In this document: positions 1 to 9,450 of the stretch, piece after piece
How the letters are laid out: each line of letters starts with the position of its first letter
Position numbering within the stretch: position 1 is the stretch's first letter
Origin: Promethearchaeota archaeon
Lineage (GTDB): Archaea > Asgardarchaeota > Lokiarchaeia > Sigyniarchaeales > SOKP01
DNA length: 22,812 nucleotides
Direction of reading: 5' to 3'
NCBI GenBank assembly: GCA_016839745.1
Contig: JAEOTS010000113.1
Span: 1 to 22,812 of the forward strand
The notes under the pieces: generated by a model
The model's database searches: none
What the model was told of the DNA's origin: nothing
What the model saw: only the letters and a program-made list of their open reading frames with translations
Made by a program: the position numbers and the translations under genes

Positions 1-297
1 ATCTCTGATAACATTTTCAGCCGGAAATTCTTTAATTTCTTTAGCGAGCTCTCCTAAAAATAACGGTTTCTTGCCTTTTAGTTTTTCAAGGACTAATTTC
101 CGCTCTGTTTCAGCGTCTATCATTGCATCAAGGATTTGGTAAAAATCGGTTTCAGAAAATTTACCAGCTTTCAATATTTCGTCTTTGGCTTCAAAAAAGG
201 CTCTAACTTGAAAGTTTCCTGAAGCTATATATGTAGCTTCCATTAAATCTGCAGGAGAAAATTCTTTAAATGATTTGTTTTTTACAGTTTGAACCAT
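1..297 (-). CDS. Partial CDS (N-terminal 99 aa, runs off the window start); third gene of the hdrA-mvhD operon, function uncertain, possibly an FrhB/FdhB-type partner
   Basis: Open frame from ATG at 297 to position 1: MVQTVKNKSFKEFSPADLMEATYIASGNFQVRAFFEAKDEILKAGKFSETDFYQILDAMIDAETERKLVLEKLKGKKPLFLGELAKEIKEFPAENVIRD. AGGT upstream. Not in the ORF track. The product guess rests on operon context only. Confidence 0.7.
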   Translation of the reverse strand, partial: MVQTVKNKSFKEFSPADLMEATYIASGNFQVRAFFEAKDEILKAGKFSETDFYQILDAMIDAETERKLVLEKLKGKKPLFLGELAKEIKEFPAENVIRD

Positions 298-356
298 ACT
301 TCATTCTCTTACCTATTTTTTATAAAAATTACATTAATTAACAAAAATTTTATTAC

Positions 357-429
357 ACTCCCTTTCCCTTGCGAGGCAAGTCATCCTACAACTACAATTT
401 TCTTGCAGGAATCATTCTACGGGAGGAGT
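357..429 (-). promoter_or_regulatory. Eukaryote-like SECIS element (selenocysteine insertion sequence)
   Basis: Minus strand 415->380 reads AUGA-U-UCCUGCAA-GAAAAUUGUAG-UUGUAGGA-U-GA-C. This gives an AUGA/GA core, an 8-bp helix with one G.U pair and an A-rich apical loop. A lower helix can form between ACUCCUCCC (429-421) and GGGAAAGGGAGU (368-357). It lies directly 3' of two genes with in-frame UGAs. Confidence 0.85.
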
Positions 430-846
430 TATTACATCCGCATACTTTATCGGATTGGATCCAGACCTCTTTATTTTTTCGTATGCATCCTCTACGCTTT
501 TAACTAGTTTATCTGCTTCTGCTCCGCTTAACCAATACATATTGATTCTTTGATTTCCGTAACCTCTTAAGTCAAGTATCCTATTAGCTAAATCAACATG
601 CCTTTGAGCGGTAAAATTACCTTGTTTGAACTCGCATTCATTTGGGCGTCAACCAACAACCATAACTCCGTCAGCTCCAGCTTTTATCCCATATAGAATA
701 TGCTTTACATCGATTCTTCCGGTACACTTTACTTTTATAATTTTGATTGATGCGGTATATTTCATTCGAGAAACTCCAGCTAAATCCGCCGCAGAATACC
801 CTCATTTCAAACAAGCAAACATTAGAATTTTAAATTCGTTCTCCAT
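412..846 (-). CDS. mvhD: Methyl-viologen-reducing hydrogenase delta subunit MvhD/VhuD, selenoprotein with 2 Sec (U15, U66), 144 aa
   Basis: Manual translation: MENEFKILMFACLKUGYSAADLAGVSRMKYTASIKIIKVKCTGRIDVKHILYGIKAGADGVMVVGURPNECEFKQGNF...GSNPIKYADVITPPVE*. TGA at 804-802 and 651-649 replaces the Cys of the MvhD CxxC and GCxxxxC motifs. SD AGGAGGT overlaps the hdrA 3' end. Confidence 0.93.
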
Positions 847-850
847 TTTT

Positions 851-2791
851 TTAACCTCCTTCCAACATTCCATCAATTTCAGTAAATAACTGATAATCTC
901 TAAAATATCTAATATCTATCGCGTTAGTCGGGCAACAACTAGCGCAGATTCCGCAGCCATCGCAATTAATTTCGTCTATAACCGCCGCTTCTTCACCTGT
1001 AACCGTTATTGCATTTTTAGGGCATACCTTTTCACATCTTCCACAGCTAATGCAAAGATCATTAGTAACTTCTGCAATAATTAGTTCAATGTCTATTTCT
1101 CCAGGAGCTGTTAATTCGGCTACCTTACTTGCGGCAGCTCTAGCTTGAGAAACAGAGTAGGCTATGTCTTTTGGACCTTGGGCGAACCCCGCAATGAAAA
1201 TTCCTTTAGTTTTAGTTTCTTGCGGCATTAATCCAAAGTGAGACTCTGTTAAAAATCCATTTCGATCAGAGTCTAAATTTAATATCCTAGAAATTTGCTC
1301 CGTACCTTTTGAAGGTAATGCAGCTGTTGATAATACTACTAAATCTGCGCTGATTTTTATGATTTCGTCAGTTAACGAAGAGTAAACTCGGATATTAACA
1401 TTCTTTGTGTCTGGATCTTCAGAAAATTCGCCTACTTTTCCTCGAATCATCCTAATGTCAGATTCTTTAGCTCTTTGATAATATTCTTCGAAACCCTTTT
1501 CGTTAGTCCTCATATCTATGTAACAAATAGTAATATTTGCGTTAGGGAATTCTTCTTTCAGCAATTTTCCATTTTTTAAGGCTAACATGCAGCAAACGCC
1601 GCTACAATAAGGTCTCTCAGTGTCCCGACTCCCCACACATTGAATAAACACTATTTCTTCAGGTTCTTTTGTATCCGATATTCTATGGGTATGACCTTCT
1701 AGAGGCCCATTTGGAGCTAGAATTCGTTCGAGCTGGCATTGAGTTATAACATTTTCAAATTCTCCGTATCCATACTCTCCGAACGGCTCGTAAATGTTCC
1801 ACCCCGTCGCTACAATGATTGTGCCTACTTTGAAAGTAACTTCTTCTGGTACCTGACTGAAGTCTATAGCGTCTAACTCGCAAGCTTCAACGCAACTAAA
1901 GCATTCAACGCACACATCACGATTAATATCGTACAAGAAGGGGACGGCTTGTCCAAATGCGATGTCTATAGCTCTTCTTGGTCCTAAGTGTTCGTCAAAG
2001 TAATTGGAAGTGATTATCGGACAAACTTCCGTACACGCTCCACATCCATTACAATCGTTGTTTACATATCTAGGCTTCTTTTCAACTTTCACATCGTAAT
2101 TTCCTACGAATCCATCCACTTTTTTCACGTCGCTATAACTTAGAATTTCTATATTTTCGTTCCGATTAACTTCGAGCATAACGGGACCGCAGATTCATAT
2201 CGAACAATCGTCGGTAGGAAATGTTCTATCTAATTGGGCCATTCTACCTCCTATAGTAGTTTTACTCTCGACTAAATACACTTTGATCCCTTCGTTTGCG
2301 AGGTCCAATGCAGCGTTCATTCCAGCAATCCCCCCACCTACTATCATTGTGGCTTTTTCAACGGGGACCGTTCTGACTGGAACAGCTTCTAAAGTTTTTG
2401 CTCTATTTACTCCGCTAGTAACGAGGATTTTAGCTTTATTTAGTGCATCTTCACTATCTTCTGTACACCAAGAACAATGCTCTCTTACATTTACCATTTG
2501 AAAATGGTAAGGATTTAAGCCCGTTTTAGAAATAGAGGCCCTATAAATTGGTTCGTGAGTCCTAGGTGTTCAAGCAGACGCCACTATACAATCAAGGTTT
2601 TTTTCGTTAATATCGTTAATTATTTCTTGTTGTCCACCCTCTGTTCACAGAAAAGCATGAGTTTTAGATATCACAACATCGTCTAAGCCTTTTGCATAAT
2701 CTACTAGTTTATCGCAATCTACTTTTCTCTTAATGTTAATTCCTCACTGGCAAGCATAGTATCCAATCCGATGATTTTCAGATTTTTCCAT
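851..2791 (-). CDS. hdrA: Heterodisulfide reductase subunit A, selenoprotein with 4 Sec (U16, U49, U74, U199), 646 aa
   Basis: ATG at 2791 (SD GAGGTG upstream) is in frame with track ORFs 2195-2497 and 851-2179. In-frame TGAs at 2746-2744 (ACQUGINI), 2647-2645 (FLUTEGGQ), 2572-2570 (SAUTPRTHEP) and 2197-2195 (TFPTDDCSIUICGP) match HdrA motifs CHCGxNI, MCSxxGQ, ACSPRxHE and TFPTxDCSxCI. Also present: GGGIAG FAD motif, CVGSR...YCSGVCC, and four CxxCxxCxxxC ferredoxin motifs. Confidence 0.95.
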
Positions 2792-3106
2792 TTTCTTTCT
2801 TACTCCACCTCAATTTTTACAATTATGTCTATTCTTTCTGTACTAAATTCAATTTCGTCCTTTATCATTTTCCGACACTCTAAACGAAATTATATCAAAA
2901 AACTTACTTTTTTTTAATGATTTTTTATTTAAATTCTTATTTATTTAAGTTTTTATGTTATATATTATATTTTCTTCTATTTAACGATATAAGTAAAAGC
3001 TAAAAATCAAATTAGTGCTATAATTTGAAATAATTTACTCTTCGATCTATAAAAAAATACCGCTCCTACATAAGAAAGGCACTAAATTCTAATCTAAGAT
3101 GCTTTT

Positions 3107-4249
3107 CTAAACTTGTTGAATTTGCTTCATAGATTGTATTTCAAACTTTCGCTCGACTAAATCTTTTGTCAAATCTTCTAACTTTTCAATTTTTCTTTCT
3201 AATAGGTCTATTTTATTAAAATTCGCTGCTAGGATTTTTCTTATCAGTTTATTTTCTGATACTGTAAACGCTCCAGCCTTTTTTCTAAAAAACTTATATC
3301 TCCGATAGTGATCCGATCTTTTTAAAAGATTCAATCGTATCATCCATTTAATAGCGGGCATAAAATATTTTTTAGGACCAATTTTCCTTTTTACCTCGCC
3401 ATAATAATCTTCAAGCGTATGTTGTTGGTAATTTAGGAGGTTTTGAGATTTGGTGGTATTCATATAGCCACAGTGGAAGTCCTTTTCAGCGAATCCTTCT
3501 TCAGGAAGAAAATTTCTACCTAACCCAAAAATATCCATCATATCGTTAAGATAGTCTCGATAGGTTATTCTACATTGTTTACCACCGGCTAAATTGAATA
3601 TTTCGCCCCATACTTCATCACATCCGATCGAATTGACTAAAGCTAGCCCAACATCTTTAGTATCACAGATTTCGATAGAAGTATCTAATGGCATGTGAAA
3701 CATTAGAGGATCCATATTAAGTTTATCGATAGATGTTATATAGGTTAATCTAAATATTGCGAAATCTACACCTGATTCTCTAATCAACTTTTCAGCAGAG
3801 ATTTTAGTTATAGCATAATAATCTCCTTTACTGGGAGCAACTGGATCACTAACTTCTATCATTGGATTGTATCGTCGATCTCCGTAAACAGCCACAGATG
3901 ATGTAAAGATTAATTTAGATTTCTGCACCTGTTTTTTAATAGCTTCAAGTATGTTTTTGGTTCCTCCAACATTTACAGATTCAGCCAAGCTAGGATTCGT
4001 ATCTGCCAATGGTGGAATAATCGCAGCCAGATGGATTACTATGTCTTGATTCTGGACAGCAGTAGTCACATCTTCCTTATTTCTAAGGTCACCCCAAATA
4101 ATCTCTATTTTATTTTTGAATTGTTTAGCAATTTTTCTGTTTTTTCTATTGTATACTTCAAAAACTCTGACTTCATAATTTTTATTTAGTAATTCATTTA
4201 AGGTGCTTAATCCTACATTCCCAAAAGCACCTGTTAATAATATTTTCAT
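3107..4249 (-). CDS. NAD-dependent epimerase/dehydratase (extended SDR) with C-terminal coiled-coil-like tail
   Basis: TGAFGNVG Rossmann motif, HLAA, VNVGGT, SSVAVYG and catalytic YAITK (YxxxK). Confidence 0.9.
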   Translation of the reverse strand: MKILLTGAFGNVGLSTLNELLNKNYEVRVFEVYNRKNRKIAKQFKNKIEIIWGDLRNKEDVTTAVQNQDIVIHLAAIIPPLADTNPSLAESVNVGGTKNILEAIKKQVQKSKLIFTSSVAVYGDRRYNPMIEVSDPVAPSKGDYYAITKISAEKLIRESGVDFAIFRLTYITSIDKLNMDPLMFHMPLDTSIEICDTKDVGLALVNSIGCDEVWGEIFNLAGGKQCRITYRDYLNDMMDIFGLGRNFLPEEGFAEKDFHCGYMNTTKSQNLLNYQQHTLEDYYGEVKRKIGPKKYFMPAIKWMIRLNLLKRSDHYRRYKFFRKKAGAFTVSENKLIRKILAANFNKIDLLERKIEKLEDLTKDLVERKFEIQSMKQIQQV

Positions 4250-6968: not shown

Positions 6969-8468
6969 ATGACTGAAAATCCAACTGAACCAGAGCCGGA
7001 ATCCACTCAATATGACTATTCTTTTGATTACATTCAAAAGAAACTTGAGGGGAAAAAGGATTCCTATGGAATGTTAATGAAGGAGATTATTCGGGCGGGT
7101 ATCTGTACTGAATGTGGAACTTGTGCTGCAGTATGTCCAGTGCTCGAATGGGATCATTTAGCGGGACAACCTAAATTAATTGGAAAATGCACTGGTTGTG
7201 GAATTTGTTATAATCAGTGTCCCCGAACTATTACTGACCCTATTCAACTGATGGGCGAATTTAAAACCGGATATGTATCAAATACCAATATTCCAGAAGT
7301 TATTGGAGCCCAAGATGGAGGGACGGTAACTTCATTGCTAAGTTATCTATTCGACGAACATCTTATCGATGCCGCAATTGTTTCAATGAAGGATCCTGAT
7401 AATCCTTGGCATCCCGTCGCACAAATTATAACTAATAAAGACGACGCAATTAAAGCATCCGGTTCTATTTATTGCCATTCTCAAACAGTAGAAGCTCTAA
7501 TGGATGCAATACGACAAGATTATCGATCGATAGCATTTGTTGGGACTCCTTGCAATATCGATGCCGTTGATAAAATGACGAGTTCTCCATCAGGTATGTT
7601 GAAATATTTCATGCGAGCTCACATCCTCAAAATTGGTTTGTTCTGTATGGACTCGTTTGCTCCTGAAGCACTTTATCCATTTTTTGAAAAAGACGGGATA
7701 GATTTATCAAAAGTAGTAAAAATGGACATCAATAAGGGAAAGTTTCATATATATTACGATCACGATGGAGAACCGGTAAAATCATATACGATCAAACAAT
7801 TAGACAAATTCAAATCGTCCAGTTGTAATTTTTGTACGGATTTAACTGCCGAGAACGCAGACATCTCTATTGGTTCAGTAGGAAGCGGCGCTAAGAAAAA
7901 TACTGCTTTTGCAAGGACGGGAATTGGGGCAGAAATTATAGAAGACGCTGCCAAAAAGGGATATCTTGAGATTGAACCATATAACGCAATAAATTTAAAC
8001 GCTGTTTTGTTTTTAGCGAAACTTAAAAAAGTATCTCAATACAACATTCAAAAAAGGAAAGTCTTTATTGTTAGAGAACCCAGTGTAATCGAAGAGCCCA
8101 AAATTGAATCGAAACCAGAGGAAGAACAAGCAATTGCAAAACCTCTAGGATCTAGAAAATTTTTAAGTGTTTCAAAGGATATTGATGAAGAAGAAAAACT
8201 CTTAAAAATAACATTAACCAATTCTGTTGGATATCTACTGGAAGATCTTAAGATCAGGATTGTTATTGTCGAAGAACTATTTGAGAAGAAACCTTGGATA
8301 ACAGCAATAAGAGAGTTGTTTCCGTATGAGTCTATAGATATAGGTTATCCCTTAGAAACTGTGGATAATGAAATTGTCTACCCTAATGTGTTAGTAGAAG
8401 CATCGACTGAAAAGTATGGCAAAGTATTCTCAAGAACGTTTAAATTAGCCCCAAAAGAAGAAAAATAA
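6969..8468 (+). CDS. Coenzyme F420 hydrogenase/dehydrogenase beta-subunit (FrhB/FdhB) family protein with N-terminal 2x[4Fe-4S] ferredoxin and an extra C-terminal domain
   Basis: CTECGTCAAVCP and CTGCGICYNQCP, plus FrhB motifs AQDGGTVTSLL, VGTPCNIDAV, IGLFCMDSF and CNFCTDLTAENADISIGSVG. About 130 aa extra at the C-terminus. Confidence 0.9.
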   Translation: MTENPTEPEPESTQYDYSFDYIQKKLEGKKDSYGMLMKEIIRAGICTECGTCAAVCPVLEWDHLAGQPKLIGKCTGCGICYNQCPRTITDPIQLMGEFKTGYVSNTNIPEVIGAQDGGTVTSLLSYLFDEHLIDAAIVSMKDPDNPWHPVAQIITNKDDAIKASGSIYCHSQTVEALMDAIRQDYRSIAFVGTPCNIDAVDKMTSSPSGMLKYFMRAHILKIGLFCMDSFAPEALYPFFEKDGIDLSKVVKMDINKGKFHIYYDHDGEPVKSYTIKQLDKFKSSSCNFCTDLTAENADISIGSVGSGAKKNTAFARTGIGAEIIEDAAKKGYLEIEPYNAINLNAVLFLAKLKKVSQYNIQKRKVFIVREPSVIEEPKIESKPEEEQAIAKPLGSRKFLSVSKDIDEEEKLLKITLTNSVGYLLEDLKIRIVIVEELFEKKPWITAIRELFPYESIDIGYPLETVDNEIVYPNVLVEASTEKYGKVFSRTFKLAPKEEK

Positions 8469-8529: not shown

Positions 8530-9450
8530 GTGAAGTTTACTATTAAAATATCTCTTGTAGGACTTGGAGGATGTGGTAAAACAAGTTTGTATTCTGTCGC
8601 TTTTGCAGAAAAAAGACCAGAAGACACCAAAAAGTTAAGTCCCACAATCCTCTATGAGACGAGAAGACACCCCTTTTTAGGGCTTCAGGTTGGAATTTTT
8701 GACTTCGGCGGACAAGAACAATACAGAAAAGAATATATGGAAAAGCCAGAAATTTTTAAAGGCACTGATATTTTAATTTGCATTGTTGATTTACACGATC
8801 CAGACTCTTTCGATCAAGGAAAAGAATACTTTGAGGGTTTATTGGATATTCATAGGAAAAATAACGAGAAACCAAGAGTCTTATTATTCTTACACAAATA
8901 CGATACTGAAGACTATCCAAAGGAACTTTTAGATACGAATGTTAAGAATGCCAAAGAAATCTTTTCAGACATGTTTAAAGATTACGATTTCGATTTAAAA
9001 TTGACGAGTATTTATCAACAAGATGAATTAGCTAAAGTTTTTCGGGATATGTTAATTTCTTCTTACAAAGACTTAAAGGCTTCTGTTGAGAAAGCAGAGA
9101 GTCAACTCGAAGAAATAAAAGCTAAGATAATAATTTCTGATGTTTCTGGAAATGTGCTAGTTCATAACGTTCAAGGTGTTAGCAGTGGTTTGACGCTAAG
9201 AGGAGATTTGAGGGATTTCATTGACGCAGCAAATACGGTGAGAGAGAATATTTTTATGTCCGATTCGTGTCGCTTCATGGGACAGAGTGAAGATGGAAAG
9301 GGGATTGAGCTCCACATCTTTAAGTATATCATTTCTGTATTTGTTATGAAATCACAAGAATTAGATAGAGATTCTCAAGATAAATTGAACGTGTTACTTA
9401 ACGATATGAAACTTTTCGCAGATTTAATCATCTCTGCTCACTCCGATTAA
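8530..9450 (+). CDS. Rag/Gtr-like small GTPase with C-terminal roadblock-like domain
   Basis: G1 GLGGCGKTS, G2 SPT, G3 DFGGQ, G4 FLHKYD (HKxD, typical of Rag) and G5 LTSIY (as in RagC/D). C-terminal IIISDVSGNVLVHN... shows an alpha/beta roadblock-like pattern. GTG start. Confidence 0.82.
   Translation: MKFTIKISLVGLGGCGKTSLYSVAFAEKRPEDTKKLSPTILYETRRHPFLGLQVGIFDFGGQEQYRKEYMEKPEIFKGTDILICIVDLHDPDSFDQGKEYFEGLLDIHRKNNEKPRVLLFLHKYDTEDYPKELLDTNVKNAKEIFSDMFKDYDFDLKLTSIYQQDELAKVFRDMLISSYKDLKASVEKAESQLEEIKAKIIISDVSGNVLVHNVQGVSSGLTLRGDLRDFIDAANTVRENIFMSDSCRFMGQSEDGKGIELHIFKYIISVFVMKSQELDRDSQDKLNVLLNDMKLFADLIISAHSD

Follow-up and report, generated by a model that had tools for sequence, protein, structure and literature searches.

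How are six in-frame UGA codons, divided over two adjacent genes, read as selenocysteine (Sec) when a single selenocysteine insertion sequence (SECIS) element lies behind the second gene? This question is raised by the hdrA-vhuD gene pair on a contig of a Promethearchaeota archaeon (JAEOTS010000113.1), of which a stretch of 22,812 nt, here called the window, was analysed. The metagenome-assembled genome (MAG) to which the contig belongs comprises 3.5 Mb in 192 contigs and is 89% complete. Its nearest relatives in public databases are MAGs with the labels Promethearchaeota or Promethearchaeia, and a Gtr1/RagA-type GTPase is among the genes next to the pair, which points to an uncultured Asgard archaeon of the Loki type. 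The genes hdrA and vhuD (or mvhD) encode heterodisulfide reductase subunit A and a hydrogenase delta subunit, respectively; both genes and the SECIS element are on the minus strand, and all coordinates were read directly off the sequence. An initial annotation of the stretch had proposed that one eukaryote-style 3' element serves all six UGAs across the two cistrons. The comparative tests described below all fit that proposal, with one SECIS element per locus, and we regard it as likely that one SECIS on one bicistronic mRNA serves both hdrA and vhuD.

Six UGA codons and the element behind them

VhuD belongs to the MvhD/FlpD family (Pfam PF02662, 3e-41) and HdrA carries FAD/NAD and 4Fe-4S domains. 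Solved Hdr-Mvh/Vhu complexes (9sfi, 8rvu, 5odc and 7bkb) were matched with E values of 1e-168 to 4e-197; against single chains in the PDB, HdrA matched 9sfi_A at 4e-197 and VhuD matched 9sfi_K at 1e-37. The four UGAs of hdrA align with Cys13, Cys46, Cys71 and X196 of 9sfi_A, and both UGAs of vhuD align with an X in 9sfi_K, the X in these chains being an unknown residue that marks Sec. The canonical Sec of HdrA and both Sec positions of VhuD are thus X in the 9sfi chains, and the other three TGA positions of HdrA are cysteine (Cys) there. The all-Cys paralogues elsewhere in the genome (on contigs C141, C52, C21, C25 and others) have Cys at each of the six positions, and the other Sec-type pairs (C20, C79, C185, C137 and C64) have either TGA or Cys there. 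Within this genome a Sec-type hdrA is always paired with a Sec-type vhuD and a Cys-type hdrA with a Cys-type vhuD.

Judged from these alignments and from the comparison with related genomes, the six in-frame UGAs almost certainly encode selenocysteine. In the same genus 22 orthologues with 79-95% amino-acid identity were found, each with 3-5 in-frame TGAs in hdrA and a frame that is otherwise intact, and the hdrA UGAs are conserved among them at the same codons. The opposite reading, in which the UGAs of hdrA do not specify Sec, either because the gene is a pseudogene or because they are read through with a standard amino acid, is hardly credible in view of the four UGAs that persist at the same codons in otherwise intact frames, of their alignment with Cys or Sec in HdrA structures and paralogues, and of the rest of the genome, in which TGA is an ordinary stop (it terminates 11.7% of the long open reading frames, ORFs) and the Sec machinery is present.

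The element behind vhuD agrees with the lokiSECIS described by Mariotti et al. (2016, Mol Biol Evol, PMC4989117). In such an element an AUGA and a GA (rarely AA) flank a stem of 9 bp, and the loop of 11 nt is A-rich in its first five bases and closes with a G that usually follows an A. In the window the AUGA stands directly 5' and the GA directly 3' of a 9-bp stem, the loop of 11 nt begins A-rich and ends in AG, and the location is that of a lokiSECIS as well, with the element overlapping the 3' end of vhuD.

A whole-genome scan that required pairing yielded nine elements with the consensus loop; it replaced a loose pattern (ATGA N31-33 GA), for which about 7000 matches had been obtained against about 5100 in the control. 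The nine elements follow prxL-like genes, hdrA-vhuD pairs and some small UGA-containing ORFs, and in their ungapped alignment the AUGA, the AAA of the loop, the last G of the loop and the GA are invariant. All nine pairs of helix II covary, changing on both sides, and none of 500 shuffles attained the observed score. The proportion of helix II cells that are paired was 93.8%, compared with 38-47% in slid controls.

The core is set in a three-helix junction. In constrained folds this arrangement was obtained for most orthologues and for 7-8 of the nine same-genome elements, regardless of gene family. In a model-fitted alignment of 53 distinct sequences, which is biased toward the structure used to fit it, helix II was 94.5%, helix III 86.5% and helix I 70% paired, with values of 46-53% in the slid controls for helices III and I; each pair of these two helices changes on both sides somewhere in that alignment. 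For the lower helices the constrained folds and model-based realignment took the place of RNAalifold, which returned the upper stem only on the extended SECIS alignment because MAFFT had put the lower arms out of register. The mini-hairpin that forms helix III is not mentioned in the main texts of PMC4989117 and of Huang et al. (2024, ISME J, PMC11227280).

Plain minimum free energy (MFE) folding of 298-420 did no better than shuffles (z -0.4) and put equal weight on a wrong second hairpin; the SECIS can be recognised only by motif and comparison. Rfam holds SECIS models. No Rfam family reached its gathering score in the window, and no SECIS family appeared at E values up to 10 over 1-3300, a null result that is uninformative because the lokiSECIS is absent from Rfam.

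In the mechanism that we propose, hdrA and vhuD would be translated from one bicistronic mRNA carrying a single 3' kink-turn SECIS of the Loki type, which is eukaryote-like. Read by a trans-acting factor that recognises the kink-turn, this element would bring the Sec-specific elongation factor and Sec-tRNA(Sec) to all six UGAs, reaching the four of hdrA at 1.8-2.3 kb upstream and the two of vhuD at 0.24-0.39 kb upstream. Translation of vhuD would begin 4 nt past the UAA of hdrA, at the GGAGG embedded in the 3' end of hdrA. The seventh in-frame UGA, that of the SECIS core, would work as the stop codon of vhuD because it is too close to the SECIS and in fact lies inside it.

The search for a second element

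No second AUGA/GA hairpin had been seen in the flanking intergenic DNA in the initial annotation, and this absence holds now that the coding regions are included, with covariance models, kink-turn and GAA_A scans and a scan of synonymous sites. Two covariance models were run without filters, a core model (R1) over the whole window and a full three-helix model (R2) over 1-3300, and neither disclosed a further SECIS copy beyond the element at 357-429. With R1 the segment 371-425 scored 49.5 bits (E 2e-9), and elsewhere on the sense strand of hdrA and vhuD the score did not exceed 9.9 bits. With R2 the real site scored 88.8 bits and the runner-up 11.1 bits.

A generic kink-turn pattern was also used, made up of [AG]UGA, a stem (8-12 bp, no more than one mismatch), a loop (6-40 nt) and [GA]A. 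Between 3106 and 298 on the sense strand its sole match was the real site; about 0.8 matches are expected there by chance. When stems of 7-12 bp and loops of 4-44 nt were allowed and matches were counted by alignment column over 23 orthologous loci, the real site was found in 22 loci (the contig of the 23rd ends earlier) and the next best column in 6 of the 23. The scan for a Methanococcus-type GAA_A element found none in the window and no site that was common to more than 7 of the 23 orthologues.

Hidden RNA structure is expected to appear as a local deficit of synonymous change, and this was sought in the 23 orthologues after normalisation for pairwise divergence. Windows below a z-score of -2.5 occurred only at the first codons of hdrA and at the junction of hdrA end and vhuD start. 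At the junction (904-854), which holds the Shine-Dalgarno sequence of vhuD, the z-score was about -2.5 to -2.9; values of about -2.5 to -2.1 were found for the last codons of vhuD, which form the 5' arm of the lower SECIS helix, and for the Cys-rich motifs. Directly after the six UGAs of the window no hairpin and no synonymous constraint were detected.

One candidate within hdrA, at 1450-1416, was considered separately. It matched the strict pattern, of which about 0.002 matches are expected in a region of that size. It was rejected on account of three G-U pairs, one mismatch and a non-consensus loop, of its R2 score (11.1 bits, E 0.18) and of a synonymous ratio of 0.92 (z -0.6). A stem of 8-9 pairs is confined to the seven closest sequences, those of six orthologues and of the window itself; in the remaining 16 the number of pairs falls to 4-7. 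Conserved codons, for Met-Ile and for Glu-Asp, account for its AUGA and its GA, and on its sequence the look-alike is best described as a by-product of the coding sequence.

The start of hdrA raises the possibility that the distal SECIS, though needed, does not suffice, and that an extra, unrecognised cis element aids the far UGAs of hdrA, on the model of the Sec redefinition elements of some eukaryotic mRNAs. Candidates for such a helper are the constrained codons 1-12/16 of hdrA and a hairpin at about 2893-2858. The constraint on codons 1-12 (2756-2791, minus strand) is the strongest in either gene, with an observed/expected synonymous ratio of 0.31 (z -5.4) over the 23 orthologues, and it stops shortly ahead of codon 16, the first UGA. 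Over some 45 nt at the hdrA start, eleven orthologues do not differ at all, despite many synonymous differences elsewhere. The Sec-type paralogues C20, C79 and C185 begin with TTG TCT GAA nnn CAG ACC, which gives a GUCUG/CAGAC hairpin at the start codon, and this GUCUG-loop-CAGAC structure is missing from the Cys-type copy C141. The second candidate is an inverted repeat upstream of hdrA (about 2858-2893, minus strand), which in orthologues reads UUUUUCGACA, about 13 nt and UGUCGGAAAA. It covaries between CGACA/UGUCG and CGAUA/UAUCG, is kept in the window copy by G-U pairs and could be a hairpin of the 5' untranslated region (UTR) or an operator. Also upstream of hdrA are a conserved ACAUAAUUGUAA box (about 2811-2822) and, near position 2805, a Shine-Dalgarno sequence, GAGGUG.

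Constraint at the 5' end is common among genes and usually linked to initiation, and the small hairpin in codons 4-10 is lost in more distant orthologues. Moreover, none of the candidates contains a kink-turn core, and nothing comparable is found near the other three UGAs of hdrA. We consider a contribution by such a helper improbable. Similarly doubtful, in our view, is a reading in which a three-helix element resembling a k-junction, with the last vhuD codons in its lower helix and the vhuD stop in its core, is accompanied by hdrA codons 1-12/16 as a second cis element. On that reading, every ribosome that completes vhuD would need to unfold the signal required by the ribosomes upstream.

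One element per locus and the case for one transcript

That one SECIS serves both genes is the reading to which the orthologous loci conform. Exactly one strong SECIS (40-55 bits) was found behind vhuD in all 21 same-genus orthologues with enough downstream DNA. The full model R2 gave 59 matches over 70 sources, one per locus; among these are about 29 loci of other Promethearchaeota MAGs in which the whole of hdrA could be searched, again with one SECIS each. The first UGA of hdrA, for which the initial annotation had given a distance of about 2.3 kb, was measured at 2331 nt upstream of the SECIS core in the window and lies 2331-2359 nt from the SECIS in the orthologues; for the last UGA of vhuD this distance is 236-260 nt.

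The stop codons of the two genes behave differently. The stop of hdrA is TAA or TAG in 23/23 and 29/29 loci and never TGA, an avoidance to be expected only where ribosomes translating hdrA respond to the SECIS. The stop of vhuD lies 0-15 nt from the SECIS core in the orthologues and is, in the 22 loci compared, the UGA of the AUGA core (13 loci), a UAG 4 nt upstream (8 loci) or a UAA (1 locus). The absence of UGA at the end of HdrA, and a minimum-distance rule for UGA stops, had been reported by Mariotti et al. (PMC4989117).

The two genes are closely joined. The gap of 4 nt (847-850) that had been noted earlier was read as AAAA at 850-847; in orthologues the gap is 4-9 nt, with a short overlap in one, and the GGAGG within the last codons of hdrA is conserved. 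Parts of the stretch are contained in ten sediment metatranscriptome runs, four of which were compared against the window. The junction at 847-850 is spanned by two contigs from different studies, which reach 77 nt or more beyond it in either direction (X2, 770-1022; X7, 707-1108); both derive from relatives at about 91% identity, and they hint at a single transcript for hdrA and vhuD. A near-identical contig, X1, spans the end of vhuD and the SECIS (352-504). Neither the uncovered stretches (221-330 and 2877-3300) nor the contig ends near 352 and 2876 can be read as transcript ends. As a separate observation, X1 ends 5 nt past the lower helix of the SECIS and 5 nt before the T5 tract at 347-343, a contig end not being the same as an RNA end.

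If hdrA and vhuD were instead transcribed separately, the SECIS could act on hdrA only in trans, if it acted at all, and another decoding route would be needed. AT-rich internal promoters of archaea are hard to exclude at 33% GC, and the constraint at 904-854 could conceal a promoter as well as a Shine-Dalgarno sequence. An internal promoter, however, would add a vhuD transcript and not terminate that of hdrA, the 4-nt gap reads without a terminator-like T tract, RNA-library contigs of two studies bridge the junction, and hdrA never ends in UGA. This makes separate transcripts very unlikely. A scan for bacterial-type promoters and terminators, which is ill-suited to archaea, stayed at chance level.

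Several points weigh against the sharing of one SECIS by both genes on one mRNA. The strong synonymous constraint on hdrA codons 1-12 is left by it without explanation. The scans detect kink-turn and GAA_A shapes and synonymous constraint, and they would overlook other kinds of elements or an RNA that acts in trans. The RNA evidence consists of assembled contigs from relatives of about 91% identity, which prove no single molecule, and carry-over of DNA is possible. Finally, the published evidence for lokiSECIS function, for a range of 2.3 kb and for the crossing of a stop and restart is computational alone, up to a review of 2026.

It had also been suggested that the output of the complex is steeply selenium-dependent, which is speculation. 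At least four full-length all-Cys hdrA-vhuD pairs are present in the same genome, and these could buffer any dependence of the output on selenium.

Table 1. Coordinates of the hdrA-vhuD locus and its SECIS element within the window
Feature	Position	Strand	Remarks
hdrA (heterodisulfide reductase subunit A)	2791..851	-	646 codons and TAA stop (853-851)
hdrA in-frame TGA codons 16, 49, 74, 199	2746-2744, 2647-2645, 2572-2570, 2197-2195	-
SECIS look-alike in hdrA	1416..1450	-	AUGA, 9-nt arms and GA; rejected as functional
GGAGG Shine-Dalgarno sequence for vhuD	855..859	-	Within final hdrA codons, 8 nt before vhuD ATG
Intercistronic gap (AAAA)	850-847	-	4 nt, hdrA TAA to vhuD ATG
vhuD/mvhD (hydrogenase delta subunit)	846..412	-	144 codons, TGA stop (414-412)
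vhuD in-frame TGA codons 15, 66	804-802, 651-649	-
Complete SECIS element	357..429	-	73 nt, three-helix junction
SECIS helix I	5' arm ~426-421; 3' arm 362-357	-	5' arm in final vhuD codons
SECIS core	AUGA 415-412; GA 382-381	-	Core UGA is the vhuD stop (414-412)
SECIS helix II	5' arm 411-403; 3' arm 391-383	-	UUCCUGCAA and UUGUAGGAU; 8/9 positions paired
SECIS apical loop	402-392	-	11 nt, GAAAAUUGUAG
SECIS mini-hairpin (helix III)	376-366	-	4-5 bp, between GA and 3' arm of helix I
T5 tract	343..347	-	Putative archaeal termination signal, 10 nt past SECIS; sequence reading only
Second T5 tract	328-324	-	Sequence reading only

Selenocysteine machinery and related systems

The genome contains the components with which Sec could be made and inserted. 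SepSecS scored above its cut-off at C150:5822-6766, an EFSec candidate is located on the same contig (C150:1367-2257), and a candidate for PSTK is present in the genome. Two tandem selD genes, encoding selenophosphate synthetase, lie at C158:16249-18543 and have one in-frame TGA each; a duplicated selD is unusual outside the Loki and Thor lineages (Huang et al., PMC11227280). Genome searches with aragorn and with the Rfam model RF01852 gave no match for tRNA-Sec, yet the gene is present. It was found by means of the tRNA-Sec of a congener, which matched C150 in two pieces, and is located at C150:5449-5598 (L089:1434-1583, plus strand), between the EFSec candidate and SepSecS. The gene is complete but twice interrupted: in comparison with uninterrupted genes of congeners it has two introns, insertions that lengthen the anticodon loop by about 28 nt and the T loop by about 30 nt, and because these split the gene it is missed by aragorn and RF01852. 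Mariotti et al. (PMC4989117) had reported a single intron, of 31 nt in the T loop.

The arrangement in which hdrA and vhuD share a SECIS is already known, from work published in 2016 and 2024, and the present locus is a rediscovery and not a new system. Mariotti et al. (PMC4989117) described tandem HdrA-VhuD genes of Lokiarchaeota that share one lokiSECIS, with up to six UGA codons over about 2 kb and up to four Sec residues in HdrA, and Huang et al. (PMC11227280), with more than 400 Asgard genomes, described hdrA-frhD with a type I eSECIS-like structure. The locus of the window has the gene order, the short gap, the four Sec of HdrA and two of VhuD, the single element after vhuD and the UGA stop by the SECIS in common with the HdrA-VhuD genes of the first study; there is no essential difference from either description, and what has been found is a further locus from another Promethearchaeota MAG. 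The review of 2026 treats the sharing of lokiSECIS as a computational inference.

What is added here are the scans of the coding regions over 23 orthologues, the three-helix-junction context of the SECIS and the RNA-library contigs that bridge the junction. The locus is a well-documented example and comes with a comparative data set of 23 loci with one element each. The orthologues form a set of clean test constructs, for which the look-alike at 1416-1450 is a natural negative control. If the published model is true, this is the longest-range and the only cross-cistron SECIS action known. The shared SECIS sits at the evolutionary joint of archaeal and eukaryotic selenocysteine decoding, as was recognised in 2016.

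Eukaryotic SECIS elements are kink-turn elements of the 3'-UTR; in the case of selenoprotein P, two of them go with many UGAs. The element of the window is like these eukaryotic elements in its AUGA...GA core, the unpaired A's of its loop, its 3' location, its presumed action at a distance and the use of a nearby UGA as a stop. It differs in having a shorter stem (9 bp), in overlapping the coding sequence and the stop codon, and in that it would serve a prokaryote-type operon of two cistrons, the second restarted from a Shine-Dalgarno sequence; furthermore, no SBP2 homologue is known in these archaea (PMC4989117).

In Methanococcales and Methanopyrus, VhuD has two Sec codons and one archaeal SECIS in the 3'-UTR, of the GAA_A type with AUGA_GA flanks (PMC4989117, PMC11227280). 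These loci share with the window the same protein with the two Sec positions, the use of one 3' element for more than one UGA, and hdrA-vhuD synteny. However, the window is without a GAA_A element, its hdrA carries four Sec codons, compared with one, and lacks an element that serves it alone, and the range would be 2.3 kb compared with about 150 nt between codons in Methanococcales and Methanopyrus. In bacteria, the SECIS hairpin belongs to the coding sequence and directly follows the UGA that it recodes. Bacterial recoding resembles that of the window in that UGA is read as Sec in a polycistronic setting, but the bacterial element is local and there is one per UGA.

Consensus SECIS elements were also found behind short UGA-containing ORFs, at L010:241-433 (C37), C46:57070-57250 (L011) and C116:14506-14770 (L014). 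One of the SECIS-linked short ORFs is a frame of 64 codons with the sequence ...GGGUPKPC.... These ORFs may represent small or novel selenoproteins or VhuU-like genes.

Near-identical vhuD-SECIS loci of the Loki type (65-89% identity) were encountered on five contigs (L067, L055, L070, L074 and L076) that public records assign to MAGs with the labels Sumerlaeota bacterium, Hermodarchaeota, Odinarchaeota and Hodarchaeota, probably through mistakes in binning or labelling.

Elsewhere in the window, an FrhB/FdhB-like protein with an N-terminal ferredoxin domain, without FrhA/G partners, adjoins a GTPase of the Gtr1/RagA type (6969-8468 and 8530-9450, both on the plus strand).

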